31,581 nucleotides of DNA, taken from IMG/VR virus record IMGVR_UViG_3300030331_001136, positions 1 through 31,581 of that record; one strand, given 5' to 3'. A program made the position numbers and the translations under genes. Under the pieces are notes generated by a model, which worked only from the letters and a program-made list of their open reading frames with translations, was not told where the DNA came from and did not search any database. The DNA comes from a virus. Its lineage: Duplodnaviria > Caudoviricetes. This document shows positions 4,865 to 24,888 of the stretch, one piece after another. Within the stretch, counting starts at the first letter, position 1, and every line of letters begins with the position of its first letter.

Positions 4865-4872
4865 ATTACCCC

Positions 4873-5492: not shown

Positions 5493-5523
5493 GTAAACAC
5501 CATATAATTTTTCAACCTCTATA

Positions 5524-5718: not shown

Positions 5719-5720
5719 GC

Positions 5721-5756
5721 TAAACCATTGATTTTATTGACTATTTTTCCAGGATA
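5721..5756 (+). promoter_or_regulatory. IHF-box + TTCCWGGATA module, copy A
   Basis: taaaccattgattttattgactatttttccaggata; reverse complement of 5721-5733 = AATCAATGGTTTA, matching WATCAANNNNTTR. Confidence 0.7.
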
Positions 5757-5764
5757 TAAGCCCA

Positions 5765-6088
5765 TTATTTGCCATTCTTTTGCATATATGCAGAAGTTCC
5801 CATGTAAGCACCTACAATACCAGCACCACTAATATAAAATAAATTCGATATATCGCTAAGTGCATTTACTCTTTCGATAGGTACTATAAACATCGCAACA
5901 GTAAAAACACCCATGCCGATTAAGGTATATCTTGCCATTCTAAGTTGTGCTAAATTTTTTCTAAGTTTTGTTTCAGTTTCTTTAATTTCTTTAACATGGC
6001 TTAATTCTTCATCTGAAACTACACCATCACCATCAGTATCATAATCAGAAAAAACACTATCTTTTTGAAATTTTTTTTGTTTAGCCAA
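5765..6088 (-). CDS. Membrane protein with EF-hand-like loop and two TM helices
   Basis: DTDGDGVVSDEE loop; two hydrophobic segments; TTG start. Confidence 0.75.
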   Translation of the reverse strand: MAKQKKFQKDSVFSDYDTDGDGVVSDEELSHVKEIKETETKLRKNLAQLRMARYTLIGMGVFTVAMFIVPIERVNALSDISNLFYISGAGIVGAYMGTSAYMQKNGK

Positions 6089-6152
6089 AGTAAAAACCCC
6101 CTAAAAAACTAAAAGACCATATGCCTAATGTTAAAAATATAAAATTTATCAT
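6081..6152 (-). CDS. 23-aa hydrophobic peptide (not in ORF track)
   Basis: MINFIFLTLGIWSFSFLGGFYFG*; TGATG coupling with the upstream gene. Confidence 0.45.
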   Translation of the reverse strand: MINFIFLTLGIWSFSFLGGFYFG

Positions 6153-6631
6153 CAATTTTTTATTTTATACAAATATGCCAAAAATACAATAAAACCTATA
6201 ACTGTGCATACTAGTAAAAATATCGCACAATAATTTATAATTTTATCTCTTTGTTGTTGTCTTGCATAAATAAATTGTTGCCTATCTTTTCTAATTTGTC
6301 CTTCTGTTGCCAAAAGTTCATTCCAGCCCGATTGTCCATATTGCCCCATAATAAGCATTTTTAATTCATGTCTTTGTTTTTCAAGTTGTTTCTTTGCTAT
6401 AAAACTATCTAGGGCAACTTTTTCAACATTACCGCTGTTAAAAATTGATTGAACTAATGTTGGCTGTTTTGCTCTTTTTTCATAATTTTCAATGTCTGAT
6501 GTATTGGAAATAAGCACTTTTAGCTGACCGCCCATTTCGGAAATATCTTTTCCTAATGCCACGCCCTGTTTAAGGTAATTAAAGGCTTTTGTCGCCCCTG
6601 TTAGTAATAATCCTATGGTTGCGGGGTCGAT
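6152..6631 (-). CDS. Membrane-anchored coiled-coil protein; start codon uncertain
   Basis: Frame is open upstream of GTG 6562 to (I)IDPATIGLLLTGATKAF; C-terminal TM helix. Confidence 0.7.
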   Translation of the reverse strand: MDPATIGLLLTGATKAFNYLKQGVALGKDISEMGGQLKVLISNTSDIENYEKRAKQPTLVQSIFNSGNVEKVALDSFIAKKQLEKQRHELKMLIMGQYGQSGWNELLATEGQIRKDRQQFIYARQQQRDKIINYCAIFLLVCTVIGFIVFLAYLYKIKN

Positions 6632-6640
6632 AATACACCT

Positions 6641-7189
6641 CTATTCTTCGGGAAAATCAAAGATTGGGGCATTTCCAGTTGGAACTCCATCTTTCATAGG
6701 TGTATCAAATAATTTAATAAAATTATCTAATGTTTTACACGCTGTTATTTTATCTTCAATATTTTTACAAGCATCTCTTATAGCTTTTCTTTTTGCTGTT
6801 ATATCTGAAGGTACTGCCAAACTCGAATCATCAGTTGCCCTAATAATATACCAATCCGACTTTGTAAGCATACTATTTGCTGATTCTTTTGTTTGTCTTA
6901 TCCAAATAGTTTTTAATCCCTCATTGATAAGTTTTGTTTTTCCATCTTCTTGATACAACTGTTTGCCATCTTCATCTTTAGCATCTTCATCATCAAGTTT
7001 TCGTTCAATACCTTTTGACCAATAAAAACGATTATCAAAACTTGTATCTTCTTCTTTTTCCCAAACTAATTTAAATTTCTTTTTATCTTCAGCACTCCAA
7101 GCACTAGCCCAATTATAGGGGTGTTTGTATGTGCCATCTGACCAAGACTTTCCCTCTTTGATTATTATTCCATTATGTTTCCAAGGCAT
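6641..7189 (-). CDS. Tail-fibre-associated / assembly chaperone-like protein
   Basis: C-terminal LTKSDWYIIR...RKAIRD pattern; directly after the receptor-binding gene. Confidence 0.65.
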   Translation of the reverse strand: MPWKHNGIIIKEGKSWSDGTYKHPYNWASAWSAEDKKKFKLVWEKEEDTSFDNRFYWSKGIERKLDDEDAKDEDGKQLYQEDGKTKLINEGLKTIWIRQTKESANSMLTKSDWYIIRATDDSSLAVPSDITAKRKAIRDACKNIEDKITACKTLDNFIKLFDTPMKDGVPTGNAPIFDFPEE

Positions 7190-7198
7190 TTTTTTCTC

Positions 7199-10024
7199 CT
7201 ATTTTGCATTACTAAATTTAAAAGGTTGATCTGCAAAAGCCATATAGATTACAGTATGACCACTAGCGTTTACATCATTACCACTTGATGCCCTAATTTT
7301 TATGCCATTGCTAAGAAAATCTACAAAATTATAACTTGTGCTTTCTGATGATGGTTCATTTGCTACCAAATAACCTTTTATTTCGTTAAATGGAGTACGT
7401 TTATTATCAATAATAACCCATTCATATCCACTTGCAGTTATACTTTTAGCCATAAAAAATGAGGGAGAAAAACCTAGATGAATGTAAGTGCCATCTGTTG
7501 AACCATTTGGTTGATAACTGCCAAACTTAGAGTAGCCCTCAATTTCAGCAAACACAAAGGCAACATAATTATTTCCAGAAAAATTAACAGCACCTCCAGT
7601 TCCTAATGAAATAACTGAACTTGTAGGTGCAGTATCATTCCAAAAAACAGCACTATCTTGTGTGGCAAGGTTTTGATTTATATGCAAATATTCTGTTTCT
7701 GGTGCAGACGTATTTTCTCCATGATAAACTATCCAATTTCTTGTACCATTTCTTTCTTTTATTAAAATCCATTTTGGAACTTTACCTAATCCATGCCCTA
7801 TTGTTCCATTACTACCAGTACCAGTATAAGTTACAATACTAAAACCAGATGTTTCGTTGGTTTGTGATACACTTAGAATTGAGCCATCAAAGTTAGTAGA
7901 GCCATGTGTTGTGTTAGTTCGCACCTCTGCACCCATGCCAGAATGTAGCTGACAATAGTAATAGAGGTTAGCAACACCACTTGCTACTGTTATCGTGGTT
8001 AAATAATTGCTATCGTCTTTTACAACTCCAGTTGTATATTCTGAACCACCACCATGCGTTCCATTGTTTGTTAAAGAAAATCTTAATGGGTGTCCTTGTG
8101 CTGAACTGTCTGACCAATCAAAAACATATGTGCCACCCTCTTGCAAATCAAGGTCAACTCCATTTGTGCCAAATCCAGTTGTGCCATCACTTTTAAAAAA
8201 CTGATATTTATTTGCACCAGTTCCATGCCCATAATCTGTACTATCTGCAACTACTTTTACTTTATACGTCTTTGTTGGTGTTGTCCCACCTGCTTTCCAG
8301 TTCCATACTACATATGTATCACTTGAGCCATTTATTTGCCCATCAGTTCCTAATGTATAGCCATCATTTGTAAATGTTTTTTGTTTATTTGCTTGTGTAG
8401 ATTCAGCACTAGTACTATCAGATTTTAATTGTTCTGATGCACCTCTTGAACTATCAAATAATAAATGACTAACTGCATTATTTCGTTCTTTAAACCAACC
8501 CCAATCTGGTCTAAAACCAACACCAGTTACCTCCCTATCATCTGTACCATTACCAGTATAAAGAACTGTATTAAAATGGTCATCTGCTTGTTCAGATTGA
8601 TTTGGACTTATTGTAGTGTCTGGTAGGTTAGATGAGCATAGTGCAAGATAATCAGTATGACTAGATGGTAAAGCTGTATGGAAATCACCTTTGCCATTCG
8701 CATCAGTATTTCCACCTGCTGTTTCTTGCCCTGCAAAAGTGCTGTCTTGACCAAAATTGAAAGTTAATTGAGTTTGATAATTGCTTGTTCCAATAACATA
8801 ATCTGTATCTTGCATACCAGTAAAAAGTTCAAAAGGTGTGCCACCATCAACATTATACTTTATAGATGTTGTAGAACTTTCTAAATCAATAAATATTCCT
8901 ATTACTGAATTTTGCACAATATCTGGGTGACTTGTTATAGATACTGCACTTCCTGCACTAATTTTATATTCTGTTGTTCCATTTACATTTACACCATATA
9001 GATATCCTTGAGAACTTGTACTCCAACCAGAAGCTGACCAATAATAAGAATTACCACTTAATCTTCGTCTGCTTGCTTCTATTATTCCTACACTAAATGC
9101 TTTGCCACTTGGACTTTCATCTACTCTTACTTCATAATACCATTTTCCAGATGGGAGCAAAAAAGTTCCAGTTGCCATATCCCATACAGATGTGTCATAC
9201 CTTAAATTTCCCTCTGAAATAGTACCACCAGATTTATCTAAAACATTTAATGTAGAAAAATTATTTGTAGGACTATCTAGCACAACATCTGTAGAAGCTA
9301 ATCCACTTGTTGCAGTAAAATCATTCCCATTGCCACTTGTGTCATCTCCTATTGAACTGCTATCTGCAAAAGTTAATCTAAATCCGTTTGTTCCGTAAGT
9401 TAAACCAGATATTGCTTTTGGTATCCATACATCATTTTTTGTTTCACCAAAACTAGATGGTGTCAATGCTGTACCATCAATAAAATTAATTTCAGCCATA
9501 TAACCATCCAACCATTGTGTTGCAGTATAGCTTAATCTTCCAATATAAAAATTTCCTGCAAAATTAATTGCTAAATCAGAATCTTGTGCAGGTGTGGTTG
9601 AAAAAGTTAATGTTTCTTGCACACCATTTACATATATTTTTATTCTATCACTTGCAGTTGATTGTGTTGTGTCTACTGCTAAAACTATATGATACCAGTT
9701 AGTTGTATCCCTAAAAACTCTCGTTGTTGAAACTATCGCTGTGTAAACATTACTTGTTATATTTCTAAAAGTTAAAATATCACCTGCTTCAAAATGAAAC
9801 CAAAAATCATTTATACTTGTGCCTACTCCCCCACTTAATATTATTTGACTACTTCCTAAATTTGCTCTTTTTATCCAAAAACTGTAGGTGTTTGTTCTTC
9901 TATTAGATGCAGAAAAGTTTTTATATAAATCTACAGTATCTCCATCTTCAAAACGTAAAGATTGATCTATAGTTTCTGGATAAAATCCTGCACTAGCACC
10001 AAACCATTTTTCATTGCTTAACAT
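7199..10024 (-). CDS. Receptor-binding / lectin-like structural protein (LamG + SPRY-like + repeated beta domains + cupredoxin-like insert)
   Basis: WYHIVLAVDT...IYVNG (ConA/LamG), SGKWYYEV (SPRY-like), repeated YTG.G...P.W...KERN units, HPLRFS...YYYCQLHSGMG. Confidence 0.8.
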   Translation of the reverse strand: MLSNEKWFGASAGFYPETIDQSLRFEDGDTVDLYKNFSASNRRTNTYSFWIKRANLGSSQIILSGGVGTSINDFWFHFEAGDILTFRNITSNVYTAIVSTTRVFRDTTNWYHIVLAVDTTQSTASDRIKIYVNGVQETLTFSTTPAQDSDLAINFAGNFYIGRLSYTATQWLDGYMAEINFIDGTALTPSSFGETKNDVWIPKAISGLTYGTNGFRLTFADSSSIGDDTSGNGNDFTATSGLASTDVVLDSPTNNFSTLNVLDKSGGTISEGNLRYDTSVWDMATGTFLLPSGKWYYEVRVDESPSGKAFSVGIIEASRRRLSGNSYYWSASGWSTSSQGYLYGVNVNGTTEYKISAGSAVSITSHPDIVQNSVIGIFIDLESSTTSIKYNVDGGTPFELFTGMQDTDYVIGTSNYQTQLTFNFGQDSTFAGQETAGGNTDANGKGDFHTALPSSHTDYLALCSSNLPDTTISPNQSEQADDHFNTVLYTGNGTDDREVTGVGFRPDWGWFKERNNAVSHLLFDSSRGASEQLKSDSTSAESTQANKQKTFTNDGYTLGTDGQINGSSDTYVVWNWKAGGTTPTKTYKVKVVADSTDYGHGTGANKYQFFKSDGTTGFGTNGVDLDLQEGGTYVFDWSDSSAQGHPLRFSLTNNGTHGGGSEYTTGVVKDDSNYLTTITVASGVANLYYYCQLHSGMGAEVRTNTTHGSTNFDGSILSVSQTNETSGFSIVTYTGTGSNGTIGHGLGKVPKWILIKERNGTRNWIVYHGENTSAPETEYLHINQNLATQDSAVFWNDTAPTSSVISLGTGGAVNFSGNNYVAFVFAEIEGYSKFGSYQPNGSTDGTYIHLGFSPSFFMAKSITASGYEWVIIDNKRTPFNEIKGYLVANEPSSESTSYNFVDFLSNGIKIRASSGNDVNASGHTVIYMAFADQPFKFSNAK

Positions 10025-10746
10025 TAGCTAAAAGCCAACTGTGGTGTACCAAGTAAAATAGAGTTATCTGCTTTTATCATATAAGGCACAACGTCATAAG
10101 CACTATTTGCACTTGATAAAGTTAAACCACTTCCACCTACAGTTTCATAATCTGTGCCTAAAGATACTGTGCCTGCTGAACCAGAACTAGGCTGAATAAA
10201 TATCATTGCACCAGTTTGACCAACATTTGATGCTTCTGTTGAGGGATTTGATAAAGTATTTGCTCCGCTACCTAAAGTCAGAATAAAGTTTTGGTTGCTA
10301 TCAAAGTCTAAGGTTTTACTCGTAGATATTGTTGCAGTTTCAGTTGCAGTAACACTTGCATTGCCTAAAACAATTCTTCCCGTTCCATTAGGTGTTAAAT
10401 TAATATCCCCATTACTTGTACTAACAATACTATTCCCATTTACATCAAGATTCCCCCCTAATTGAGGTGTAGTATCTCCAACTACATCAGTTGCAGAATC
10501 TGACACATTAACTGTATTTGCAGTCGTGTTAAATGTTGCAAAAGTAATATCATCTGAGCCATCAAAAAATTTTAATATTGGTGCAGATGCACTTGAGGTG
10601 TCTAGCCAGAATGTGCCACTAACTGCACTTGATGGTCTTGAACTTCCAGAGTTTGATGTATTGATTGCACTCAATACTGTATTTAAATCACTCCTAAATG
10701 ATGGAAATGATTGATTTGCTATTGTAAAATCAGTTGCTTGTGCCAT
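10024..10746 (-). CDS. Tail fibre / adaptor protein
   Basis: IANQSFPSFRSDLN...SRPS...FWLDTS N-terminus and DTTPQLGGNLDVNG motif; Ser/Thr/Gly-rich. Confidence 0.75.
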   Translation of the reverse strand: MAQATDFTIANQSFPSFRSDLNTVLSAINTSNSGSSRPSSAVSGTFWLDTSSASAPILKFFDGSDDITFATFNTTANTVNVSDSATDVVGDTTPQLGGNLDVNGNSIVSTSNGDINLTPNGTGRIVLGNASVTATETATISTSKTLDFDSNQNFILTLGSGANTLSNPSTEASNVGQTGAMIFIQPSSGSAGTVSLGTDYETVGGSGLTLSSANSAYDVVPYMIKADNSILLGTPQLAFS

Positions 10747-10763
10747 AATTATTTATACTCCTT

Positions 10764-13700
10764 TTATGTTCCTTTTGCAATAAAATCAAATGTTCTTCCT
10801 ACTCCATTGTCTGAACTATTTAAAAATTGCACATTAAATCCATTTACAGTTTTATTTGTTACATTAAAATAATCGCCAGTATTTAAAGTTTGTCCAGTAA
10901 TACCTACTGCATAATTAGTATTTAAAAATGGATTAATAAATGTAATTGCTTTTGTTCCAGTAGAATTAGAATAACTTTCATATGGCAATAATGTATTTGA
11001 TTGTGTAACTTGCGCTCCCCATAAATAAACACTTCCAGCACTTGTCCCAGAGTTTACATCTGGATAAATATAAAATAACCCAGTACCAGTAAAACTGTAT
11101 GTTCCTATAAATGAACATCTGTACCAACCATCTGTACCAACTGCTGAAATAGTAGTAGTTACATTAGTTACCCCTGCAGTAGTATAAGTTCCAGCAACAG
11201 TTCCATTTGATAAATTATAAATAGTTCTACTATATTGGCTCAAACCAGATTGTCCATACAACAATGAAACATTATTATTTGTATTTGCTTTTGCATAACA
11301 TGAAACAGCATATGTTCCTAAGTCATTATGATTATTAAATTTGTAAACTGCTCTATATGATACTGCTGTTTTTGCTACTAAATCTGCTGTAACTTGACTA
11401 TTTATAGGATTCGCAATTTGATTTGCTGTAACTGTTATATTTACTCCACTTCCATTATCTGACCAACTATCAAATGCTTCTGAATCTGGAACTTGATTGC
11501 TCCAACTATGAATATCATTATCACTAAATATTCTATCTTGCATATCAATAGAAACACTAACTTCTGATACTACTGGTGTGCTTGCATTATCTCTTGAAAT
11601 TAACACAACCCTAAATTTAAAATATCTTGCTTCATATTCACCAATAACAAAACCTCTAAAATCTGTAAATGTGCTGTTATCATCACTTGTTGCTATCTCT
11701 AAATGTGCATTACAATTAGCGGGGGTATCTCCATCAAAATTAGAACTGGCATCATCAAAATTACCACTTCTTGCATCGAATAAATCATCGGGGTTATCTG
11801 ATGTTTGTGTTAAAGAAGCTGTTATTCTTGCTGTATGTTTTGCCCCAATGTCAATAACATTAGCAAACTCATAATTTCCCGATGAAACAAAATCTGCATT
11901 AGAAGCACCACTATCAAAAAATCTTACTGTTTCGTCATCAAAATTACCACTAGCACTATCAAATAATTCTGATGAATCTAGTTCTATTGCATTATCTAAC
12001 ACAACAACATTTGTTTTTGTTCCGCTAAATGATGGGTGTTCTGATTGTGTGGTTATTTGATTAAAATTTAATGTGCTAGTTACATTTGATATAATCGCTG
12101 TTGCATTTGAACTAAAATTTCCAAGTTTATCAACTGCTTTTATAAGATAAGTTCCTTGTCTTGCGGGAACTGTTACTGATGTGGCTGGTCTTGACACCTT
12201 TTCAACCAAAGCAACAGAATTTTGCCAATCTGCTGTACCATCTGTTTCTTCTGAAAATCTAACATTGTAAAAAGCTAAATCTAAATCGCCTACAGCTTCC
12301 CATGATAAATGAACTTCTTGTCCACTTACATTAGCTGAAAAATCCGTAACATCTGAAGGCGGGGCTATTGCACCAACTATTGTTCTTTGTGCTGAAACAT
12401 ATGTTGAAGATACTCCAATTGTGTTTACAGCCTTAACCCTTACATCATAAGTTTGCTGGTCAATTACATTTAAAACCCGATGATTTAAACCCGAACCTTG
12501 TGCATAAATAATAAAATTACTATCGGAACTAAGTTTGTATTCAACTTGGTAGAAATCTATAAAATTATCTGTACTTGCCCCAATTGCTATATCTAAAGCA
12601 ACAATAACAGTTCCGTCATTATACTCTATTAACTGGTCTGATAATGTAACACTTGCTGGGGGTTGAACTGTAAAAACATTTGGCAAGGTTGTAGTTGGAA
12701 TTGTTGCAACTTCTTGTTGTGTTCCAAAAGTATAAAAACTATCTTGATGTTCTGAACATTGTAAACTAACAGTATGGTCGGGATTTATAGAAAGACCTTG
12801 AACCCTAAATGCTTTTGCTGAAAATGCTGGTGTTGCATGAGTGATATTAACCAAATCACCAATAGCCAAATCAAGGGCTGTAGCGTCTGCTGTGAGGGAT
12901 ATATCTAAACTTGACCTAGACCGCCTTAAAATGATTTCTGCCATCTCTTGGGCTTGATATGGGCTTGTAAACATAGAAAAATCAAACCTACCTTCTAAAA
13001 GTAAACCTCCATCTGCTGTTTTCATTGTTGAATGTTGGTCGGCACTAGCCAAACCAGTTTCATCTACTGGTGGAAATTGTGCTGTGTCTGATTGAAAATT
13101 TTTATCGGGATTTATAAAACTTACAATAACCCTGTTATATCTTGAGTTTTTATTTTTACTTTGTACCGATATACCTCCAATAATATTATCTTCTGTTAAT
13201 GTTATTGAAGCTGAACCTGTTGTTTCTACTAAAATATTATATTTACCCGCAGAAAAATTTAAATAAGACCTTGAACCTCTAATAAAATCTCTAACATTAT
13301 CAATAGCTTTTTTTGAAGTATCGACAACTGTATGGCTATCCATCAAATCAATCTGACTTGCCCCACTAAAAGGGGTTATATTGGTATCACAAACATCACC
13401 CGCAACTTGCCAATCTGCAAAATTGGTATCAAAATAACTGTTTGCTATTCCCATACCAAATCTATCATTCCGCAAGTAATCTAATAATTGATATATTGGA
13501 TTATCGGAATATTCCCATGTTGTGCTTGTGTCGGCTCTATGGCTTCCGCTTCCGCCTGTTACTGTGCTATCAAGATTTGGATTATAAACTTTTTTACCTT
13601 GCACTATAGCTTGAACAGTTGGTAATGAACCAAACTTATCTTGATTCCATTCAAATCTTAATGCTAAGTATGCCAAACCTCTTAATCTATGGTTGCTTGT

Positions 13701-14189: not shown

Positions 14190-14629
14190 TAATTATATCT
14201 CCAATTTGAACCAAGATTTTTAAATCCAAGTTTGTTAAATACTGGGTCAATATTTAAACCGCTAGTTACAGGTAAATACATCGGTAAATTATCTGAAACT
14301 TTTTTTATAGCTTCAAATAATGCTGTTACTAATTTAAAATTTCGGTAATTCTTTTTAATATAAATTGTATGTATATGAATACATTCACTTTTACTAAACC
14401 AATATTCTGTTTTATTAAAAATTGCACAACCCAAAATGTCATCTAAATCTAAATCCTTTAAAAGAATAACTTTGCCTTTTACTAACATAACATTTATAAA
14501 ATTTTCTAATTTTTTATCATCAACTTCGGGATAATCTAAATTTTGCAAATCTTCATCTTTAAAGGTTTTAAGTAAATCGCAAACAATTTGAACATCTTTT
14601 TTTTCTGCATTGTATAAATGTATACTCAT
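14189..14629 (-). CDS. GNAT-fold acetyltransferase-like protein
   Basis: IHTIYIKKNYRN (motif A-like) and FNKLGFK; probable start MSIHL at 14629. Confidence 0.65.
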   Translation of the reverse strand: MSIHLYNAEKKDVQIVCDLLKTFKDEDLQNLDYPEVDDKKLENFINVMLVKGKVILLKDLDLDDILGCAIFNKTEYWFSKSECIHIHTIYIKKNYRNFKLVTALFEAIKKVSDNLPMYLPVTSGLNIDPVFNKLGFKNLGSNWRYN

Positions 14630-15192: not shown

Positions 15193-15196
15193 GTCT

Positions 15197-15232
15197 TATC
15201 CAGGAATTTTATCTAATAAAATCAATGACTTA
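15197..15232 (-). promoter_or_regulatory. IHF-box + TTCCWGGATA module, copy C (inverted)
   Basis: Minus strand taagtcattgattttattagataaaattcctggata; AATCAATGACTTA at 15220-15232 is a perfect WATCAANNNNTTR. Confidence 0.7.
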
Positions 15233-15240
15233 CACCTATT

Positions 15241-15849: not shown

Positions 15850-17954
15850 ACTATCGCCATTTTACCTTTTTCATTAACTGCACTATTTATTAAATTTATT
15901 ATTGTACCCCTACTATTTACCAGTAATTCATTAAAACCTCTAGCATCTACAGTATTTATATTAAAATTTACTGTAACGGGCTGACTTACTGAATTTAACT
16001 TGCTGTTTGGTATAACTGTACTTGGGGCATCGGGAACAACCATTTCTGCACCAGCTTCACCTACCATGTAAGGCTCACCCCTGTTCATTCTACCGCCAAG
16101 CCTTCTTCCTTGATATTTTGTTTTAGCAATCGTGGCTATTTGAACCGCACCTAAAGCACCTATTGCAATGGCTAATGGTATATTCGGCAATGCTTTAGCA
16201 ACACCTCTAGCTGTGGACATTATAGCTTCTGCCAAATTAAAAGCCTTGTTTAATTTAAATGCTTTTTCATTATGTCTTGCCATTTCGGCTAATGCTTCCC
16301 TTCCAACCTTAACTGCTAAATCAGTTTTTTGTTCACCTGTTAATTTTTCAACATTTATTTCACCAGCCCTACCAGCTTTTAATAATTGCATAGTTTGTGA
16401 CATAACTTGTTTTTGAATTTCTAATTCTTTTCGTGCTGTATCGTGTGCAAGTTGTATTTTTTTATCTGCTCTTATTCTATCAAGTTCAGCTTGTAATTCA
16501 TCATTCTCCATTATTGATTTAATTTTGTCATTATGAAGCTGAGTCATAATATCCATTTCAAGTTTTGCCATTTGTTTTACAGCATCTAATTTTTCTTCAT
16601 CTATTAATGCTTGTGGCTTGACACTTGGTAAACTGGCATCAATTCCTAAAGCTGTTCCATCTGTGGGTTTTGGTTTTGCATTTTTTAAAGCATCAAGGGC
16701 TTTTGCTTGTAAAATAATTGCATCTGTATGTTTGCCCGTTTCAACAATTATTCTTTTAATTCCAGCTTCTTCCATAGCACGGGCTGTTTCAGCATCTTTT
16801 ATTTTTTGAATTTGTAAGTCTATAAATTTCACTTGGTTTTTTAAAGTATTGCTTACAACATTTCCGCTTTTTGCTAATTGTTCATCTAATAATTTTTTTC
16901 TTCTTAACAAATCATTTAAGGTATTTGTAGGTTTTACACCTTTTGCCATTGCATCATTCATCAATAAAATAGCTGTGGAAATACCAACAAAAGCCCCAAT
17001 AATTGATGTTCTTGCAACTGTTCCAAAAGCTAGTAAAGCTATCCTTGCTTTTCCTATCGCTACTGCTAAATTAAGAAAAGCGGTTGCAATTTTACCGACT
17101 ACTATCGCTATACCAAGTGCCTTTAATATTTCAAAGTTATCTTTAATAAATCTTACTGCTTCACCAGCTTTTATAACTGCTGTGGATAAACCTTCACCAA
17201 TAGATTTCGCAATGTCATCAATAGTTTTTTGATTGTCTTCAAGGGCTTTATCTAATGCCCCAAATTCTCTTTTTAATCCTACAAAGAATTGTTCAGCCAC
17301 AACTTTTTGAAAGTTAAAGAATTTATCGCCAATCATTGAAAGTCTGCCTTCTAATGTATTGGCTAAATCACTTGTAGCGTTTGCAAACCTACCATTTGCA
17401 CCAAAAACCCTTCTAAATGCTTCGGCTGTTTCTTCTGCTGTAACTGTTGCACCAGCTTTAAATCCAAGTAAATCCCTAACACCTCTTTCACGAAAAATAT
17501 CTGCACTTGCTACACCAGCAGAAAAAGACCTTTGAATTTGTTCTGCTGTAGTTCTAAAATCTAAACCAGTAACAGAAGCAACCCTTCCAGTAATCTGAAG
17601 CATTTCTTGTAGTTCTTCTGCATTTTTACTTACAACAGCTAGATTACCCGCACCCTGTTGGATTTGTTGTAAACTAAAAGGTACTTTAGAAGCAAACTTT
17701 GCCATGACATCAAAAGCCTTTGCACCTTCATCTACACTTCCAAATAAAAATTTTAATCTGATTTGTAAAGATTCGACTTGTTTTCCAACATCGACAAAAG
17801 ATTTGATTGCTACCCCAGCACCCAAACCTATAAGTGCATTTCGCAAATTAAATACTGCATTTTTCATTTTGTCGACATTCGTTGTCGCACTTTGCATAGC
17901 TTGTCGGGTTTTATCCTTCGCTATGATGTCAATATTTACTTGTTTACTTGCCAT
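15846..17954 (-). CDS. Tape measure protein
   Basis: 702 aa, Ala-rich helical; FASKVPFSL tape-measure domain and C-terminal GG...YMVGEAGAEM..P. Confidence 0.92.
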   Translation of the reverse strand: MASKQVNIDIIAKDKTRQAMQSATTNVDKMKNAVFNLRNALIGLGAGVAIKSFVDVGKQVESLQIRLKFLFGSVDEGAKAFDVMAKFASKVPFSLQQIQQGAGNLAVVSKNAEELQEMLQITGRVASVTGLDFRTTAEQIQRSFSAGVASADIFRERGVRDLLGFKAGATVTAEETAEAFRRVFGANGRFANATSDLANTLEGRLSMIGDKFFNFQKVVAEQFFVGLKREFGALDKALEDNQKTIDDIAKSIGEGLSTAVIKAGEAVRFIKDNFEILKALGIAIVVGKIATAFLNLAVAIGKARIALLAFGTVARTSIIGAFVGISTAILLMNDAMAKGVKPTNTLNDLLRRKKLLDEQLAKSGNVVSNTLKNQVKFIDLQIQKIKDAETARAMEEAGIKRIIVETGKHTDAIILQAKALDALKNAKPKPTDGTALGIDASLPSVKPQALIDEEKLDAVKQMAKLEMDIMTQLHNDKIKSIMENDELQAELDRIRADKKIQLAHDTARKELEIQKQVMSQTMQLLKAGRAGEINVEKLTGEQKTDLAVKVGREALAEMARHNEKAFKLNKAFNLAEAIMSTARGVAKALPNIPLAIAIGALGAVQIATIAKTKYQGRRLGGRMNRGEPYMVGEAGAEMVVPDAPSTVIPNSKLNSVSQPVTVNFNINTVDARGFNELLVNSRGTIINLINSAVNEKGKMAIV

Positions 17955-18125
17955 TTATCTTGCCTGTGCCAATCTCATTTCTCGTTCTCTTTCTTCGTTT
18001 TGAATTTCATAATATGCTATCCACATATAAAATTCACTTACTGGCATTTGCAAGATTTCGGAAACTGTTTTATGTAATCTTTCGGCTAAACTAAAAATAT
18101 TGTGAAGTTCATTATCGTTCTTCAG
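17955..18125 (-). CDS. -1 frame extension of the tail assembly chaperone (gpT-like)
   Basis: After A AAA AAC: LKNDNELHNIFSLAERLHKTVSEILQMPVSEFYMWIAYYEIQNEEREREMRLAQAR*, stopping at the tape measure ATG. Confidence 0.85.
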   Translation of the reverse strand: MKNDNELHNIFSLAERLHKTVSEILQMPVSEFYMWIAYYEIQNEEREREMRLAQAR

Positions 18126-18475
18126 TTTTTTTTATAGTCATCAACATCGGTGTTTCCTGTTCCCATTATTTTGGTAGCAACTTCTGCAATAATGTTTGTG
18201 TCTGCTTTTTTCTTAAAACTTAAAGCATCACTTGCATTAAACATTAACTCACCATCTTTTGTTAAAGCCTTTGTAATAATTACATCAATCAAAACTAACA
18301 AATCAGTATTAGTCGCACCTTTAAACAATTTTTGCTTTTCCATCATGTTAAAAGGTTTGGTATGGATAGCCATATCACCTACCAAGCCCCATTCGGGTAC
18401 TTCTATAATTTGTGTTTCTAGGCTATTAAAATGGTCACGAACACCACTAAAATAATCAATCTTGTTATCTGCCAT
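18122..18475 (-). CDS. Tail assembly chaperone (gpG-like)
   Basis: Between tail tube and tape measure; IEVPEWG motif; ends YKKN at a slippery site. Confidence 0.85.
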   Translation of the reverse strand: MADNKIDYFSGVRDHFNSLETQIIEVPEWGLVGDMAIHTKPFNMMEKQKLFKGATNTDLLVLIDVIITKALTKDGELMFNASDALSFKKKADTNIIAEVATKIMGTGNTDVDDYKKN

Positions 18476-18489
18476 GTTTAACTCTTAAA

Positions 18490-18876
18490 TTAAACTGTGC
18501 CGATTGTAAGACCACCCGTGCCTTGAATATTAACAGTTCTAGTTATTACACCATCTAAAGGTACACCAACTGACATTCCAGTTACGATACCTGTGCCACT
18601 AAATTTTCTATCGCCACTTTCATTGCCTTCGGGCAAAAATGCAAATGTTAATTCAGAACCCTGTACCATTGTTGTCTGACCAGTATCGGTTTCATCAAAA
18701 TTCATTTCAATCGTGGCGGTAAATGTACCCCTTCCGACTAAAAAAGATTTCATTGAATTACCTAATGCGGTATCTTCAACAACATCGTGTGTAGTATCAA
18801 CTGTAAATCCAGTTGCATTGCCAAGTGTCGTTCCACCAATAGTAACAACACCCTCTTTTCCGTGATGTGTAGCCAT
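18490..18876 (-). CDS. Major tail tube protein
   Basis: GKEGVV, EDTALG, PEGN.SGD and FSGTGIVT...QGTG motifs; strong AAGGAG RBS. Confidence 0.85.
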   Translation of the reverse strand: MATHHGKEGVVTIGGTTLGNATGFTVDTTHDVVEDTALGNSMKSFLVGRGTFTATIEMNFDETDTGQTTMVQGSELTFAFLPEGNESGDRKFSGTGIVTGMSVGVPLDGVITRTVNIQGTGGLTIGTV

Positions 18877-18879
18877 GCT

Positions 18880-19035
18880 TTACTCCTTTTCTTCTTCTTT
18901 TGGTTTTAACATTTTTTCGGATTTCTTTGAAGTATTATTTTGTTCTTTGTACCCAAGATTTTTAAAATGTTCTATGTGGTCTTCTGAACAACGAATAATC
19001 ATGTCATCTTTTGACATTGTGATTTGTTTTGCCAT
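18880..19035 (-). CDS. Hypothetical protein (51 aa, not in ORF track)
   Basis: MAKQITMSKDDMIIRCSEDHIEHFKNLGYKEQ...; GGGAG RBS, TAATG coupling. Confidence 0.7.
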   Translation of the reverse strand: MAKQITMSKDDMIIRCSEDHIEHFKNLGYKEQNNTSKKSEKMLKPKEEEKE

Positions 19036-19478
19036 TATGCACTCCCTCTTGTAAATTCATATATTACTCTAACAGTTATTCTTACCCCGCCATAGGGATA
19101 AATTGTTCCTTCGTCTGTTGTTGCTTCAATAATCTGTGTATCAATAGCGTTTCCGTTTCTTGTTACATCATTATCAAGTGTTTCTTCAATAACTTCAATA
19201 ATTTGGTTTCTAACTGTATCAATATTGCTTGTTGTGCCTTTACCAAAAGCAACAATCAAAAAATCAAGTGTACCCCTGTAAGTTCCAGCACCCGTATCAC
19301 CTATGCTTGACACTTCCCTTGTTTCGTCACCCGATTGAACAAACAATGCTGGAAATTGTGCATCACTTAATTCTTCGACTTCAAAAGGTTCTCTTGTAAT
19401 CTTTTTAAACTCGATAGGGCTTGTAACTGAATCAAGTTTTGTAATTATATCACCAGCTATGTTTTCTCTTTTGCTCAT
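19035..19478 (-). CDS. Tail terminator / completion protein
   Basis: MSKRENI start, acidic, FPAL motif, upstream of the tube gene. Confidence 0.7.
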   Translation of the reverse strand: MSKRENIAGDIITKLDSVTSPIEFKKITREPFEVEELSDAQFPALFVQSGDETREVSSIGDTGAGTYRGTLDFLIVAFGKGTTSNIDTVRNQIIEVIEETLDNDVTRNGNAIDTQIIEATTDEGTIYPYGGVRITVRVIYEFTRGSA

Positions 19479-19942
19479 AATCTCATTTCTTTAAAATAAA
19501 ACTTTGAAAATTCAGATTTAATTTTGAGTTCTTCTTTATCTCCAATAGAAAAAAATGGTCGTGTAATTTTTCTTTTTCCAACACCGAAAGTATCGTGATA
19601 AGAAGCTATTTTTGCTCTTTCCATATTTGAAAAAAACAATGTGCTTTTAAATCCTCTTGTTCTGAAATCTAAACTGCGAAACATTTTGCCCGTGTCTGTA
19701 AGGTCAACAAAACCTGTTTGTCTACCCCGCTTTTTTCGGCTTCTGACAGTACTTTTTGCATATGACCGCATTTGACCACCATCGGGTAGTTTTCCAGCCT
19801 GTGTACGCTTCGTAATCATCATTACAGCCATGTTTGAAACTCTATTAAGTGATTTAGTAATAACAGCCCTTTGTTTTCTACCAATTCTTTTTAAAAGGTT
19901 TGTTACCTCTATCGTGTTCACTTTGGCTTGTGCTTGTATCAT
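19475..19942 (-). CDS. Neck / virion morphogenesis protein
   Basis: Basic; LTDTGKM, YH..G and RPFF motifs. Confidence 0.7.
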   Translation of the reverse strand: MIQAQAKVNTIEVTNLLKRIGRKQRAVITKSLNRVSNMAVMMITKRTQAGKLPDGGQMRSYAKSTVRSRKKRGRQTGFVDLTDTGKMFRSLDFRTRGFKSTLFFSNMERAKIASYHDTFGVGKRKITRPFFSIGDKEELKIKSEFSKFYFKEMRL

Positions 19943-20415
19943 CTAACTAATCGTAAATGATGAATTGGTTCTTTTTCACTATCACTTACAGTTCCACCAC
20001 CATCTTCATCATATTCTACACCATCTCGAAGAATATCATTAAATTCTTCATCATATCTATCCCGATAAAAATCTATCTGAACTTGAAATGTGTCTTTTCC
20101 CTCGCCTGTGTCGGGGTCTCGCCATTTTGTTAGTTGTGGATAAACATATTTCCATAATGCCAAATAAACAACTGCTAATTCAAATTGTGCGGGTGTAAGT
20201 TTACTATTTTCCATTTCAACAGATGTTACTTTAGTAATATCCTTGTAACGAACTGTGTGTCTGTATCTTTCCCACCATTCTTCCCTAATTCGCCTTATAA
20301 CATCATTCTCAGCAAATTGTATTTGGTCAACAAAAGTTGTTATTCCAAATTCTAAAATATCGGGCTGTATCTTTTGCAGATGTGTATTTTGGACACTAAA
20401 AACTGTTGAGGACAT
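19939..20415 (-). CDS. Head-tail adaptor
   Basis: Position after the capsid gene, helical acidic profile; function inferred from synteny. Confidence 0.6.
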   Translation of the reverse strand: MSSTVFSVQNTHLQKIQPDILEFGITTFVDQIQFAENDVIRRIREEWWERYRHTVRYKDITKVTSVEMENSKLTPAQFELAVVYLALWKYVYPQLTKWRDPDTGEGKDTFQVQIDFYRDRYDEEFNDILRDGVEYDEDGGGTVSDSEKEPIHHLRLVR

Positions 20416-20603
20416 TATTTATCCTTTTTAGCTGGTTTCGGGGCTGGTTTTTCCTCAATAATAGTTTGGTCTTTTGGCGGGGCTTTTGGCTTGCCTTCGT
20501 CTAGCTTCCAACCCCTTCTTGTCCATATATCAATATTGTTTTCATAATCAACTTTAGGTCTTTCGATAACTCTATCGCCTTTTGTAAGTTTTACCTTATC
20601 CAT
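20415..20603 (-). CDS. Hypothetical protein (62 aa)
   Basis: AAGGGA RBS; Pro/Lys-rich tail. Confidence 0.7.
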   Translation of the reverse strand: MDKVKLTKGDRVIERPKVDYENNIDIWTRRGWKLDEGKPKAPPKDQTIIEEKPAPKPAKKDK

Positions 20604-20619
20604 AATCTTTCCCTTAATG

Positions 20620-20641
20620 AAAAGGGGTGGAAAACCACCCC
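20620..20641 (-). terminator. Rho-independent terminator after the major capsid gene
   Basis: GGGGTGG-TTTT-CCACCCC followed by TTTT on the minus strand. Confidence 0.8.
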
Positions 20642-20648
20642 ATAAGTT

Positions 20649-21488
20649 TTAACTTGCAACTGAGTCTGCTGTTAATTTAACACCATATGTATCGTGTAAC
20701 TCACCGACACCATAAACTGCTGTTGCAACGATTTCGTCTGCTCTTAATGAAGCATCTCTTTGACTTTCAATCTTTAGGTCTTGCATCATTGCTAAAGCTA
20801 AAGCATCTTGGGAAAATACTCCACCAATACTATCGTCTGAACCATCAACAGAAATATTACTTGATTCAAAAATTTGAATACCAGCAATCTGACCAACTAA
20901 ACCATTTCTCATAGCTTCGTTTGATAATTCTGTATTTAAACCAGCAAATGTATTTGTTAAAGACTTCTTAACATTGAATATTTGCTTCGGGTGAAATACA
21001 CCATAATAAGGGGCTGGGGCATTATTTGTCATAAGTTCTGCACTTGCTTCAAATAAGTCTTGAACTGTAAGTTCTTGACCAGCACCACCCGCTTTTTCTG
21101 TAGAAAAGCCAGTAAATAATGCTGATAAATCACCATCTATCTTTTTTGCAATAGCTTCCCCAAATAATCTTCCAATATCTCCAGCTACATTTCTTGAAGC
21201 TGAATTTCTTGCAAGGTCTGTTAATGTTGTCATAATTCCAACCTCTGAAGCTGTTATAGTAACTGATGTTGGATTTACTGCTGTATTGCTTAAATCAGTA
21301 GCTTCGTTTACTGCTGACGCTGATACCGCTGAATAAATTGGAACTTCAACTGATTTACCACCACCCGCAATAGTGTAGTTTCTGACAAGATTTCGCATTA
21401 TTGATTGCTCATTAGCAACGAACAATGCTTCTGCAACTATCTCAGTATATAATTCTGAAATGGTTGAACTGGTTGTTTCGTTAGCCAT
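20649..21488 (-). CDS. Major capsid protein (HK97 fold)
   Basis: Follows the scaffold gene; SVEVP, AIAKKID, HPKQ, GQIAGIQIFESSN and YGVGEL motifs; strong RBS and terminator. Confidence 0.9.
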   Translation of the reverse strand: MANETTSSTISELYTEIVAEALFVANEQSIMRNLVRNYTIAGGGKSVEVPIYSAVSASAVNEATDLSNTAVNPTSVTITASEVGIMTTLTDLARNSASRNVAGDIGRLFGEAIAKKIDGDLSALFTGFSTEKAGGAGQELTVQDLFEASAELMTNNAPAPYYGVFHPKQIFNVKKSLTNTFAGLNTELSNEAMRNGLVGQIAGIQIFESSNISVDGSDDSIGGVFSQDALALAMMQDLKIESQRDASLRADEIVATAVYGVGELHDTYGVKLTADSVAS

Positions 21489-21515
21489 ATATACTCCTTT
21501 AAAAAAATAGCTATA

Positions 21516-22229
21516 TTATTTTAAACTGTTTATCACTCTAGGTTTTGAATCTCTTTCCTTCTTATACTTGCGGTATAAATCTCGGTGTTCTTTTATGCTA
21601 AAGTCATAGTCCTCATAATTAAAGGCTTTTTTGAGTTCTTGCCTGTCCACATTTGACCTTGTGCCACTACCGCTAGGGGTTGGTGATACAAAGTGCGGGT
21701 TCTGTGTCAAAAACTCTTGAACCAGTTCATCGGTTGTAAAGAGTTCCCCATTATTGTTATATCTTGGTAAACCTTTTGAATCAAGTATTTCAACATTTCC
21801 AGTTTCATTTAGTTTGATTTGATTTTGTAAAAGTGAAACTACTTGGTCGGGGTTTATTGCTCTGCCTTTTGAAGCAGATGATAACAATGCTTTATTAATC
21901 TTTATATCTCTTAATTGATTTTGTAATTCTTCTTTTTCCCTGTTAAACTCTTGGGTTTTGTTTTTTATGATTTCTTCAAACTCGCCTTTTTGAATTTTTT
22001 GTTTTTCTGCTAATTCTTTTTGTTGTTTTACAGCTAATACAGCTTCATCAAAGTCTTTTACACCTAACCTTTTATTTAAGGCACTTCTATCCCTAGCCAC
22101 TCGGTTTGTAATAATCTCTTGCATTTCTGCTTCTGTAAACATTCTTTCTTTTGGCTTTTCTTCAGTAACTTCGGGCTGTGTAACCTGTTCCTGTTCTTCT
22201 GTTTGTTCTACTTTATTTTCTTCTGACAT
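21516..22229 (-). CDS. Capsid scaffolding protein
   Basis: Acidic N-terminus, FTEAEM, coiled coil, NPHFV...SGSG; GGAGG RBS. Confidence 0.85.
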   Translation of the reverse strand: MSEENKVEQTEEQEQVTQPEVTEEKPKERMFTEAEMQEIITNRVARDRSALNKRLGVKDFDEAVLAVKQQKELAEKQKIQKGEFEEIIKNKTQEFNREKEELQNQLRDIKINKALLSSASKGRAINPDQVVSLLQNQIKLNETGNVEILDSKGLPRYNNNGELFTTDELVQEFLTQNPHFVSPTPSGSGTRSNVDRQELKKAFNYEDYDFSIKEHRDLYRKYKKERDSKPRVINSLK

Positions 22230-22249
22230 TTATGTCCTCCATTTTACTA

Positions 22250-22278
22250 TTTATATCAAATTTATTGAATTTTTTCAA
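22250..22278 (-). promoter_or_regulatory. Putative promoter for scaffold-capsid genes
   Basis: TTGAAA (22278-22273), 17-nt spacer ending TGA, TATAAA (22255-22250); AT-rich context lowers specificity. Confidence 0.5.
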
Positions 22279-22463
22279 ATCTTTACATCTTCTTTTGGTG
22301 TTATTTCAATTTGTGATATTATTTCTTCGATATCATTGATGATTGTATTCTCTTTCAAACTTAAATCCACATACAATTCTCTAATTTGTGCAATATCTTC
22401 TTTAGAAAGATTTTCGCCTTTTTCTTGTAAAATTTCTGTTATTTTTTCAAGGGATTTTGTCAT
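22275..22463 (-). CDS. Small acidic protein, candidate immunity partner
   Basis: 62 aa; overlaps the 3' end of the MuF-peptidase gene. Confidence 0.55.
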   Translation of the reverse strand: MTKSLEKITEILQEKGENLSKEDIAQIRELYVDLSLKENTIINDIEEIISQIEITPKEDVKI

Positions 22464-24444
22464 CTTTTATTTCCTGTAGTAATTTCAAAAATTCGGGGGC
22501 TACTAAATCTTCTTTACCTCTATAATAAAGTGAAAAGTTTTCAACAAACCATTCTTTAGTGTTAGTTGTTCCATAACCCGATGGGCTGTGTTCTTTAATG
22601 TTTTTAACTTTATTTAGTCTTTTTTCTAATGGTCTTTCGACTTGTGTCCATTCGGGTTCAAGCCCACTAGCGGGGTTTACCCTAATATCTCTAATTTTGT
22701 ATTGCTGATGAACATGATGTCCTATTTCATGGTAAAATGTAGCTCTAAACTGGTCTAAATTATTATCTTCAAATGCTTTTGCTGAAAAAGGTCTATTTTT
22801 TAAATTATCACCTCTTTTCCAATTAGATTTCTCGGTATAAAGTGATGAAGTTGATAATTTATTCAGTTCATTATATTTTTCTTTAACTTTAGTTTTCTTT
22901 TTTAATAATTGTTGTACTGCTCTTAGTTGAACTAAACTTATGTTTGTGTTTCTTCTAAATTCAAAATACGTTTCTGCCCCAACTTCATTATAAATTTTAT
23001 CTAATTGCATTGCTAATTTTACGTCTTCATCTAAAAGTTTATCTAATTGTTGTTCAATTTTTTTGTTTCTAGCTTCCTTTACAAATTTACTTCCAATATT
23101 TTTAGAAGTTGCCTTTGCAAATTGAACTTGTATACCCATTGTTCCATCGCCCATATTAGCTAAAAAAGAACTCTCATTTTTTGAACCTCTAATTCCTCTA
23201 ATCATAGGCACATTAAATTTTTTACATAATTGTTCTGCTTCGGGCATCAAAGCCAATATCATAGACAAACTATCATCATCTAATTTTGAACCCGCTAAAG
23301 TTCCAAAGTCTGAAACTTTTTGTCTTGTGTAATGAACTTTATTTTTATTTAAATATCTGTCATCTTTACTAGCATCATTAAAAATTTTATTTAGTCTTTT
23401 TGTAGCTTCATTTGCAGAAACTATTTTAATTGTTTGTTCTGTAACACCTTCACGATTGATAGGTTGAAATATGTCTGTTTCGTCAACAACTGGCGGGGGT
23501 GTTGTCGGTTGTACTGGTGTTTCTTCGGGTACTTCATCTGCTTCTTCGCCCCATGCTGGGTCTGTTGGTAGCCAAGTATGTCTGCATCTATAACCACCCC
23601 TTACAATAAAAGGGTCACCAGTTGATTTACCTTGCCAAGACCTTCTGTTCCACATTTCTCGTATTTGTTCTTCTGTGAGTGTCCTGTTAAGCATACCAAC
23701 ACAAAATTCTCTACTATCTCGAACTAAAGTTCCTGTATAGGTAAAATGAGTAAGCCCAGCTTCTTTTGCTTTTGCAACTGTAAATTGTCCGTGAAACTGC
23801 ATTACAGAATCATGGGCTATTTGACTTGCATATCTTCTTAGATTGTTTCCAGCCCTATCACTTGCATATTGTGTGTGTAATTTTCTGACCGCTTCTTCTA
23901 CCTGTGCTTTTTTTGCATTATCAAATTTATTTTCATTTATAAAATCTACCAGTTCATTTATTTCTGCACTATTTGACGATTTATAAACCCCGTTGATATG
24001 TGACCTTATATTGCTGACCATATCTTCAAAAGGTCTACCAGCTATTGTACTTTGGTAAACTTCATCATTAATAACCTTGAGAAATCTTTCCGCAATGTCT
24101 TCAAATCCGCTAAATGATTGATATTTAAGGGCATTTATGGTTCTAAGGTCAACTTCTGTAAGACTTTTGAATTTACTTGGGATTGGCATTTCACCAAATC
24201 TATCTAATACTTCTTTTGCTATCTTGTTATATTCTTGATTTATAATTGTGTCTGCTTCATCTAAAAAACTTTCATCAATTAGTTTTTTTATAGCTGGTCG
24301 TAATTGAATAGCTAGTCTTTGTGAAACCAGTTGCCCTTTTGTTGCTCTTGTAACTTCTTTGACAACATCTTCTTCAAGTTTGTATAGAACATTTATTATT
24401 CTTTCTTCATGCTGGTCTGCTAGTTTTTCTAAAATTTTTGACAT
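22447..24444 (-). CDS. MuF / SPP1 gp7-like minor head protein with C-terminal HExxH metallopeptidase-like domain
   Basis: DSREFC...GGYRCRHTW MuF signature, Pro/Glu linker, then FYHEIGHHVH...SGYGTTNTKEWFVE. Confidence 0.85.
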   Translation of the reverse strand: MSKILEKLADQHEERIINVLYKLEEDVVKEVTRATKGQLVSQRLAIQLRPAIKKLIDESFLDEADTIINQEYNKIAKEVLDRFGEMPIPSKFKSLTEVDLRTINALKYQSFSGFEDIAERFLKVINDEVYQSTIAGRPFEDMVSNIRSHINGVYKSSNSAEINELVDFINENKFDNAKKAQVEEAVRKLHTQYASDRAGNNLRRYASQIAHDSVMQFHGQFTVAKAKEAGLTHFTYTGTLVRDSREFCVGMLNRTLTEEQIREMWNRRSWQGKSTGDPFIVRGGYRCRHTWLPTDPAWGEEADEVPEETPVQPTTPPPVVDETDIFQPINREGVTEQTIKIVSANEATKRLNKIFNDASKDDRYLNKNKVHYTRQKVSDFGTLAGSKLDDDSLSMILALMPEAEQLCKKFNVPMIRGIRGSKNESSFLANMGDGTMGIQVQFAKATSKNIGSKFVKEARNKKIEQQLDKLLDEDVKLAMQLDKIYNEVGAETYFEFRRNTNISLVQLRAVQQLLKKKTKVKEKYNELNKLSTSSLYTEKSNWKRGDNLKNRPFSAKAFEDNNLDQFRATFYHEIGHHVHQQYKIRDIRVNPASGLEPEWTQVERPLEKRLNKVKNIKEHSPSGYGTTNTKEWFVENFSLYYRGKEDLVAPEFLKLLQEIKDDKIP

Positions 24445-24447
24445 GAA

Positions 24448-24735
24448 TTATAATGTGGAACTTTTTTTCCATGCCCTAATAGACCAATAGGCGGGGGATA
24501 AAGATTTCTGACCTTTGACCTTTTTTAAAACTCCGCCCATTCTAGCCAAAAAAGATTTCTGCCTTGATGGTATATTCTTTTTAATGGACATACCCCTTGC
24601 ACCATAAGTAACTTTCTTAATTTTACCTGTTGCCCTATTTCTGACATAAACACCAAACTTTTTATTTTTAGATTCACTTGCTGACAATCTAAAAGGTTTA
24701 TTTAATGTCACTTTTCGTCCTTGATATTCAGCCAT
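24448..24735 (-). CDS. Basic conserved-looking phage protein
   Basis: KKFGVYV...KKVTYG...KSFLARM...SPAYWS; highly basic. Confidence 0.75.
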   Translation of the reverse strand: MAEYQGRKVTLNKPFRLSASESKNKKFGVYVRNRATGKIKKVTYGARGMSIKKNIPSRQKSFLARMGGVLKKVKGQKSLSPAYWSIRAWKKSSTL

Positions 24736-24886
24736 TATCTTTCCCTAAGTCATTGTTTTTATTGAGTTTTTTCCAGGATAAATCTTTCAATCTTTCGTTA
24801 ATTATTGTCTTACACATTGGACATTTCCACACACTTTTTATCACTTCTTTCAAAGCAACTTTGCACCTAATACAAAGTTTGACCAA
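24728..24886 (-). CDS. Zn-ribbon microprotein (52 aa, TTG start, not in ORF track)
   Basis: MVKLCIRCKVALKEVIKSVWKCPMCKTIINERLKDLSWKKLNKNNDLGKDNG*. Confidence 0.65.
   Translation of the reverse strand: MVKLCIRCKVALKEVIKSVWKCPMCKTIINERLKDLSWKKLNKNNDLGKDNG
24746..24780 (+). promoter_or_regulatory. IHF-box + TTCCWGGATA module, copy B
   Basis: taagtcattgtttttattgagttttttccaggata; one mismatch to the IHF consensus. Confidence 0.7.
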
Positions 24887-24888
24887 AT

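Follow-up and report, generated by a model that had tools for sequence, protein, structure and literature searches.

The three cassettes of the window

The window, that is, the whole stretch of 31,581 nucleotides analysed here, is a complete virus record (1..31581) whose ends overlap with a period of 31,479 bp. The element in question is a short insert, termed cassette in the following, in which a predicted box for IHF, a DNA-bending protein of the host, is paired with a site of CCWGG, a frequent target word of bacterial defence enzymes. By gene-family search the window encodes a terminase, an SPP1-like portal, a capsid, a tape measure and a distal tail protein as well as a J-like fibre, a lysozyme and a DUF1376 replication protein, and it was classified as a siphovirus. 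A PD-(D/E)XK exonuclease gene is also present, and neither an integrase nor a methylase was detected by this search among the 54 open reading frames (ORFs). Counting gave CCWGG at 5749, 15200 and 24773 only, as the first-pass annotation had reported by eye; no further sites exist, and the genome is purged of CCWGG outside the cassettes.

All three cassettes lie directly before start codons. Cassette C (5717..5766, plus strand) is an insert of about 50 bp in the lysis region, with its module at 5721-5756, the box from 5721 and CCWGG at 5749 (offset 28). It ends at the start codon of the ORF 5524-5718 (minus strand), a 64-aa lysis-region gene; an identical protein is encoded by the complete relative G025, from which the cassette is absent, and the right edge is approximate because the flank differs in G025. 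Cassette B (15192..15240, minus strand) is a 49-bp insert between the distal tail protein gene upstream (15241..15849, minus strand; phrog_1302, E 4.8e-30) and a baseplate-hub-like tail gene, the start of which abuts it (14626..15192, minus strand; phrog_2048, E 4.1e-43). Its module occupies 15197-15232, the box running from 15232 and CCWGG lying at 15200 (offset 28). Cassette A (24737..24784, plus strand) is an insert of 48 bp that separates the portal region from the head-morphogenesis region, with the module at 24746-24780, the box from 24746 and CCWGG at 24773 (offset 27). It abuts the start of a conserved 95-aa gene (24448..24735, minus strand; phrog_7595, 544 relatives in viral contigs) and adds 16 in-frame codons to the small ORF 24728-24886. 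Since the ends overlap with the 31,479-bp period, distances were computed on a circle, which returned the previously given gaps of 9,451, 9,573 and 12,455 bp between the CCWGG sites.

The box contains WATCAANNNNTTR, which we take to be the core IHF consensus, preceded by an A/T tract. The strict consensus had been claimed for all sites; it is matched exactly at cassettes B and C and with one mismatch at cassette A. The spacer between the predicted box and CCWGG is A/T-rich. The box pattern occurs six times in the window genome, which gives a chance of about 4e-4 per site, and in 300 order-3 Markov simulations one module arose in two runs and two modules never. Three CCWGG stand against 15.5 expected under a zero-order model or 7.8 +/- 2.7 under the order-3 model, and 12 of the 300 order-3 runs had three or fewer. 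The depletion reported earlier is thus real, although scarcity alone is mild: CCWGG is one of many purged words in the window, where GGCC, CCGG, GCWGC and GGWCC are absent, GATC occurs twice and no Pro-Gly pair is found in ORFs of ≥ 100 aa. Both GATC (7228 and 9964) are inside the tail-fibre gene 7199-10024, where similarity to the closest relative is lowest, and this GATC-bearing piece was probably imported.

In sequencing runs X1 and X5, either of which is possibly the window's own source, contigs matched all three modules without differences. Runs X9 and X11 held contigs with empty alleles at two modules, one of them that of cassette B. RNA runs contained little of the window stretch.

Action at the DNA level rather than as a promoter or ribosome-binding site had been proposed. 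The modules do stand in either orientation, and neither promoters nor terminators were predicted at the three sites of the window; by eye, however, the inserts often hold the ribosome-binding site of the following gene. A search of the cassettes against Rfam gave no match and folding gave weak folds only. An integrase att site was rejected (no integrase among the 54 ORFs, no Rfam match, three sites with differing spacers), and so was a sigma-54 promoter with an IHF site: the pattern TGGCAC-N5-TTGC does not follow the box in the cassette consensus. A miniature transposable element was rejected as well, since by eye the insert ends are not alike from junction to junction; only one cassette allele group is flanked by a short AAAGA repeat. 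The few dispersed sites in both orientations and the encoded PD-(D/E)XK exonuclease would suit a phage that exploits a host CCWGG enzyme, IHF keeping the cut down to a nick or an occasional break from which recombination or rolling-circle replication would start. The reported refractoriness of single EcoRII sites would also agree with it. The cassettes are not next to replication genes, and such exploitation appears improbable.

Turnover, geometry and distribution among phages

G025 is 94.5% identical to the window over 16.5 kb (mostly 93-96%, less in the fibre region), contains no CCWGG, and lacks all three cassettes as gaps of about 50, 49 and 48 bp. Among loci found by protein alone, the portal-side junction carried a cassette in 10 of 80; the distal-tail/hub junction carried one in 6 of 78 loci found by protein with enough flank, two loci having been left out to give this number. 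The minimal indel was seen between L534 and L535, which differ by exactly 35 bp, from box through CCWGG. In a quick portal tree of 76 rows, 25 of them with a cassette and bearers being enriched by pattern search, the cassette label needs 14 changes, at least six of which are forced by well-supported branches. The cassettes are optional inserts, repeatedly gained or lost at a small number of gene junctions. In the G025 clade, where the empty allele has a GTG start, this start resembles by eye a deletion scar, so that loss is likely there. The window and five other near-complete family records hold two or three cassettes and eight hold none, a tally which gives no frequency since bearers were chosen by pattern. 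An essential packaging or ejection checkpoint, one of the functions suggested at first, does not agree with the lack of all three in G025 and of the cassette at a given junction in about nine tenths of the relatives. A pac or cos signal was likewise rejected, there being three dispersed sites and none in this complete relative.

Three main junctions recur, namely the portal side, distal tail/hub and lysis region. The portal-side cassette is at the same junction and antisense in all 14 family-1 bearer records covering it, the distal-tail/hub cassette is optional, and the lysis-region cassette varies in place and orientation. In two-copy genomes the gaps are about 12-14 and 16-18 kb; even spacing, initially put forward as a rule, is therefore a feature of three-copy genomes only. 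A test for even spacing gave P 0.01 for the window, 0.007 for G002 and 0.05-0.2 for two-copy genomes and G011; the junctions are shared and these values hence not independent, and three circle lengths were assumed to be 31,000. Three side observations concern this family. An offset-15 variant is found near terminase genes (L487, at -3992 from the 95-aa gene; L491; L471), the member L047 has 10 CCWGG in 4.5 kb and is not purged, and the 1.5-kb contig L309, a carrier of the lysis-region cassette of this family, was assigned to a Flavobacteriales metagenome-assembled genome, probably by mis-binning.

Free CCWGG numbered 5 in 441 kb of bearer sequence against 25 in 264 kb of non-bearers; G027 and G030 account for part of this difference and relatedness is not considered in it, so that its P value was not relied on. 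Of the 18 bearer records, 5 had a single free CCWGG, located in a gene. The free sites of relatives, T7 and T3 are unconserved leftovers that mostly lie in genes, whereas the cassette sites are conserved, unlike in classical avoidance. No gene common to bearers and missing from non-bearers was found.

From 66 distinct modules the consensus TAAGTCMTTGWTTTTAYT was obtained, followed by an A/T-rich spacer and YCCWGGR; the positions of box and CCWGG in it are partly fixed by the search pattern. The conserved unit is the IHF box plus YCCWGGR. The GATA tail that had been counted as part of the module (TTCCWGGATA) varies in relatives and was dropped. At offset 27 the central W of the 49 modules is A in 26 cases and T in 23, as in a symmetric recognition site. 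Viral stretches with CCWGG at offsets 27-28 numbered 117 (79 of the window's family, 16 of family 2 and 22 elsewhere), compared with 77 over the ten control offsets 29-38 (at most 12 per offset) and 14 for the control CCSGG; these are counts of related contigs and not of events. Among generic strong IHF boxes in a 3/64 sample of the collection, none of 126 had CCWGG at 27-28, and 16 of the 25 distinct high-scoring boxes did in loci located through their proteins alone.

Family 2 is represented by G011, a complete genome of 36.3 kb with 44% GC and a capsid less than 50% identical to that of any cultured phage. No core structural protein is common to it and the window, and what they share is limited to a few small genes or genes of the fibre region. 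Five CCWGG were counted where about 48 are expected, all beside a box, three at offset 27-28 and two at offset 15, and of 17 words tested only CCWGG and GANTC are strongly purged. A longer palindrome surrounds two family 2 sites. One offset-15 module of G011 (25560-25580, L218) lies inside a 381-aa reading frame and is kept in G047. A third group (38-39% GC) has different head genes and tail proteins mostly 25-56% identical to those of the window, and its offset-27 cassette, located at other junctions, holds the only CCWGG of each contig. The fixed offset of the window recurs in all three phage families, in which the pair of box and CCWGG is one unit of fixed geometry; that this pair is a unit under selection, as first proposed, is upheld.

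Five further phages found by pattern, treated as related but distinct, have a single CCWGG beside a box, at offsets 32 (G750), 32 (G752), 15 (G046), 34 (G753) and 28 (G037), mostly within origin- or packaging-like regions; G750, complete with 60 kb, has this one site against about 85 expected. In G750 (C1, 4330-4470; L726) and G752 (C1, 19700-19870), which also purge GCWGC, the only CCWGG and the only strong IHF box are among TTATCCACA repeats (DnaA-box-like) near the terminase-side region, an origin-like arrangement. Clustered paired strong IHF boxes were also noted in G020 (L242; 644-803 and 4023-4242), an unrelated unpurged phage. The variable offsets of the first four phages, and the purged locus L517 with a box and no CCWGG, would suit an IHF site that is itself the useful part, CCWGG being a passenger tolerated under IHF cover. 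A passenger would not, however, be fixed at 27-28 bp across junctions and three families, with spacer bases and the central W free to vary, and generic strong boxes would not lack it as they do; this explanation is given little credence.

Natural alleles with a broken box or without CCWGG were also compared. G048 is 86-97% identical to G011 by segment and unpurged, with 27 CCWGG in 30.3 kb. CCWGG is kept at all four homologous sites and the box core is broken at three of them; at the fifth G011 site G048 has a different allele. Conversely, the purged L515 and L517 keep the box and have a changed CCWGG, and G047, in which CCSGG is also purged, has lost one cassette CCWGG and kept its box. No purged genome with a cassette CCWGG and a broken box was seen in the listed cassette-bearing records and portal-side loci. 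An intact box thus goes together with the CCWGG purge, an association that points to a single host agent for the two.

These alleles bear on two further explanations. In the first, which we regard as unlikely, the cassette is a non-defence docking site at which a YCCWGGR-binding DNA-handling protein of host or phage acts with IHF in replication, recombination, packaging or late-gene control, CCWGG being scarce for separate reasons. The fixed geometry, the invariant junction and orientation of cassette A, the origin- or pac-like surroundings in other purged phages, the survival of CCWGG in unpurged G048 and the palindrome of family 2 would fit such a site. Contrary to it, the cassette is absent from most relatives and from the close complete genome G025, no phage gene is linked to it, neither promoter nor terminator was predicted at the window's sites, and box decay follows loss of the CCWGG purge. 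In the second, an IHF-bound unmethylated CCWGG is a decoy that binds the host restriction enzyme or methylase uncut and titrates it once replicated. The coupling of box and purge in G048, L515 and L517 and the bearer records with one free CCWGG would agree with a decoy, as would EcoRII, an enzyme that engages two or three sites and possesses effector domains that do not cut (PMC4081073). A sponge would, however, favour many copies, and bearer genomes hold two to five; with free sites almost absent, hardly anything needs protection, and an EcoRII-type enzyme would be activated by binding to an effector site. The small number of copies and their dispersal fit a cis-acting mark better than a sponge, and the decoy is assigned a small probability.

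Kinship of the window and host searches

The capsid of the window is 65-70% identical to those of the four cultured phages HTVC111P/112P/026P/202P, from which a long branch separates the window's clade in the tree. The capsid similarity suggests a possible relative of HTVC111P-type pelagiphages and a marine alphaproteobacterial host. The four phages have 0-4 CCWGG each and lack the module. A nucleotide search of the window against cultured phages gave no match, and module searches among cultured phages gave IHF-box-only matches; the two records inspected, PHB01 and YO006_4, have no CCWGG at the box. Other features of the window are a 34-nt A/T-rich repeat in three copies at early-gene starts (737-770, 2046-2079 and 3054-3087), likely a shared promoter or ribosome-binding leader, and an inverted pair of 29 nt with 83% complementarity in the two main gene-free gaps (3104-3132 / 28332-28360). 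A perfect 14-bp hairpin overlaps the start of the VRR-NUC gene (3259-3649), the only clear plus-strand gene.

The partner of the cassette is probably host-encoded, because no cassette-linked phage gene was found. Bacterial genomes were scanned for the composite of box and CCWGG, and 66 stretches were obtained, comprising att-like tRNA ends, sigma-54-like promoters (the pattern being seen by eye in some matches) and scattered sites. Of 60 bacterial loci scanned, 18 have the same box at a tRNA end (counted by eye), and a Pfam search of 49 of 84 ORFs near 17 non-tRNA matches gave no methylase or restriction gene. In a metagenome scan, 34 of 35 stretches carried homologues of window proteins. No IHF-CCWGG pair was found in 10 extended methylase loci, and in five genomes none above the reversed-pattern control.

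Scanning of candidate host genomes for Dcm-, DISARM- or EcoRII-like loci, recommended at the outset, did yield such loci in Alphaproteobacteria. EcoRII-C was present in 16 of 401 sampled alphaproteobacterial genomes (the unpublished G392 included, on which nothing else here depends), several with Vsr and a methylase, and CCWGG-type systems are patchy. An order of 42 small genomes, reached through G360 and possibly not Pelagibacterales, gave two strong methylase-segment matches, one in G674 and one in G773. G674, an alphaproteobacterial genome of 1.4 Mb and 28% GC, has a DISARM-like island (L772, 1114-11648, and L781, 11169-13124) with DrmA, DrmB, NERD-UvrD, a 1107-aa protein without assignment, a DrmMII-like methylase and an integrase. 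G773 (L771, 6168-11061) encodes an HTH-fused cytosine methylase, a McrBC/LlaJI-like nuclease pair and Vsr. The candidate small alphaproteobacterial genomes have two or three HU/IHF-family genes each, none above the himA cut-off. Methylated CCWGG in viral genomes is reported in two marine methylome papers (PMC9516812, PMC8919816), the former of which also describes few restriction-modification systems in its SAR11 genomes and thereby argues against such a defence being widespread among SAR11 hosts.

The cassette as a candidate self mark

The element is well supported. For its function we tentatively favour, at somewhat less than even confidence and from sequence comparison, that the cassettes are IHF-shielded self marks which would let the phage pass a CCWGG-reading host defence. 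Some hosts would couple a CCWGG methyltransferase to a nuclease or DNA motor, and free unmethylated CCWGG would then be removed by selection. The IHF wrap covers roughly 35 bp. Host IHF would bind the box with the wrap ending at CCWGG, so that cutting or loading there would be hindered; judged from IHF geometry, a CCWGG at offset 27/28 would be at the wrap edge and one at offset 15 inside it. Shielding explains survival of a site and not its insertion, and a benefit needs a defence acting on site-free DNA, as is reported of DISARM (bioRxiv 2021.12.28.474362). In the most speculative step, a defence that also attacks such DNA would be stopped or disarmed by a few cassettes, probably once methylated. 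Two to five copies several kb apart would then beat zero copies in hosts with such a defence. Where a host has a plain CCWGG cutter, the cassette would do harm and be mutated or deleted, and in a host without a CCWGG system the box would decay. A bolder form is more doubtful still: unrelated marine-phage families may have converged on a protein-free counter-defence, an IHF-recruiting cassette of 35-50 bp serving as an uncuttable passport to a missing-self defence that reads CCWGG.

Several points weigh against self marking. IHF blocking a nuclease may also block the methylase or reader, and the protection at carAB is described as passive in PMC6245113. Cassette-free relatives are also CCWGG-poor, and G025, G028 and G029 have no site at all, so that zero sites are viable; against EcoRII-type enzymes alone, zero sites would be safer than sparse ones. 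A gap of up to 17.7 kb within the record G006 excludes a tight coverage rule. The matches and tree rows are related sequences and not independent events, the tree being quick and bearer-enriched. In the collections searched, no bacterial chromosome was found to carry the composite as a repeated element, as it might if the composite were a true self mark. Host assignment failed: a capsid search in 301 genomes of one order gave no match and a terminase search yielded no host names. The candidate methylases are predicted to be CCWGG-specific from neighbouring genes and profile hits.

Phages are known to answer restriction by loss of the site, by modification of their DNA or by inhibitor proteins. 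A 2018 survey by Rusinov, cited in PMC12707154, reportedly treats restriction-site avoidance in virulent phages. T7 and T3 resemble the window in the genome-wide loss of CCWGG and other palindromes; their residual sites (two and three) have no IHF box nearby, whereas those of the window are inserted conserved cassettes. In the self recognition by RecBCD and Chi, a short cis signal likewise alters what a host machine does with DNA; Chi, however, is abundant in the host and lacks an IHF component. IHF is combined with methylase (Dam) sites in P1 pac, which is single and essential, whereas the cassettes number two to five per genome and are optional. At E. coli carAB, where IHF and PepA protect a Dam site, a neighbouring GATC is methylated differently when IHF is bound (PMC6245113); the likeness is that IHF changes methylase access to a nearby site. 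Unlike the phage cassettes, the carAB site is there presented as chromosomal, single and passive, with no movable cassette and no tie to defence.

EcoRII (type IIE) shares the CCWGG target, and few, distant sites escape efficient cleavage (PMC4081073). This multi-site rule would explain tolerance of sparse sites and not insertion together with an IHF box. In class 2 DISARM, DrmMII methylates CCWGG, and protection is not fully dependent on this motif (bioRxiv 2021.12.28.474362, available sections). A CCWGG self mark and helicase motors are thus combined in one system, similar to the island of G674, which may not be a host; neither an IHF role nor a phage cis-element is mentioned in those sections. 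A literature search, with most subscription papers outside its scope, found no description of IHF-flanked restriction sites kept by phages, in line with the earlier statement that no described phage system with this layout was known.

Here, a purged phage returns CCWGG beside the box of a host nucleoid protein, and the insert comes and goes among its close relatives. With a minimal unit of 35 bp and natural alleles lacking a functional box or CCWGG, a direct test in laboratory strains is possible. If true, the passport reading would bring to light a new class of cis-acting anti-defence element and a host system by which DNA is attacked when a mark is missing from it. The cassette could reveal how DISARM and other motif-independent defences discriminate between own and foreign DNA, and in this abundant group of marine phages it offers a sequence marker for host range at strain level.

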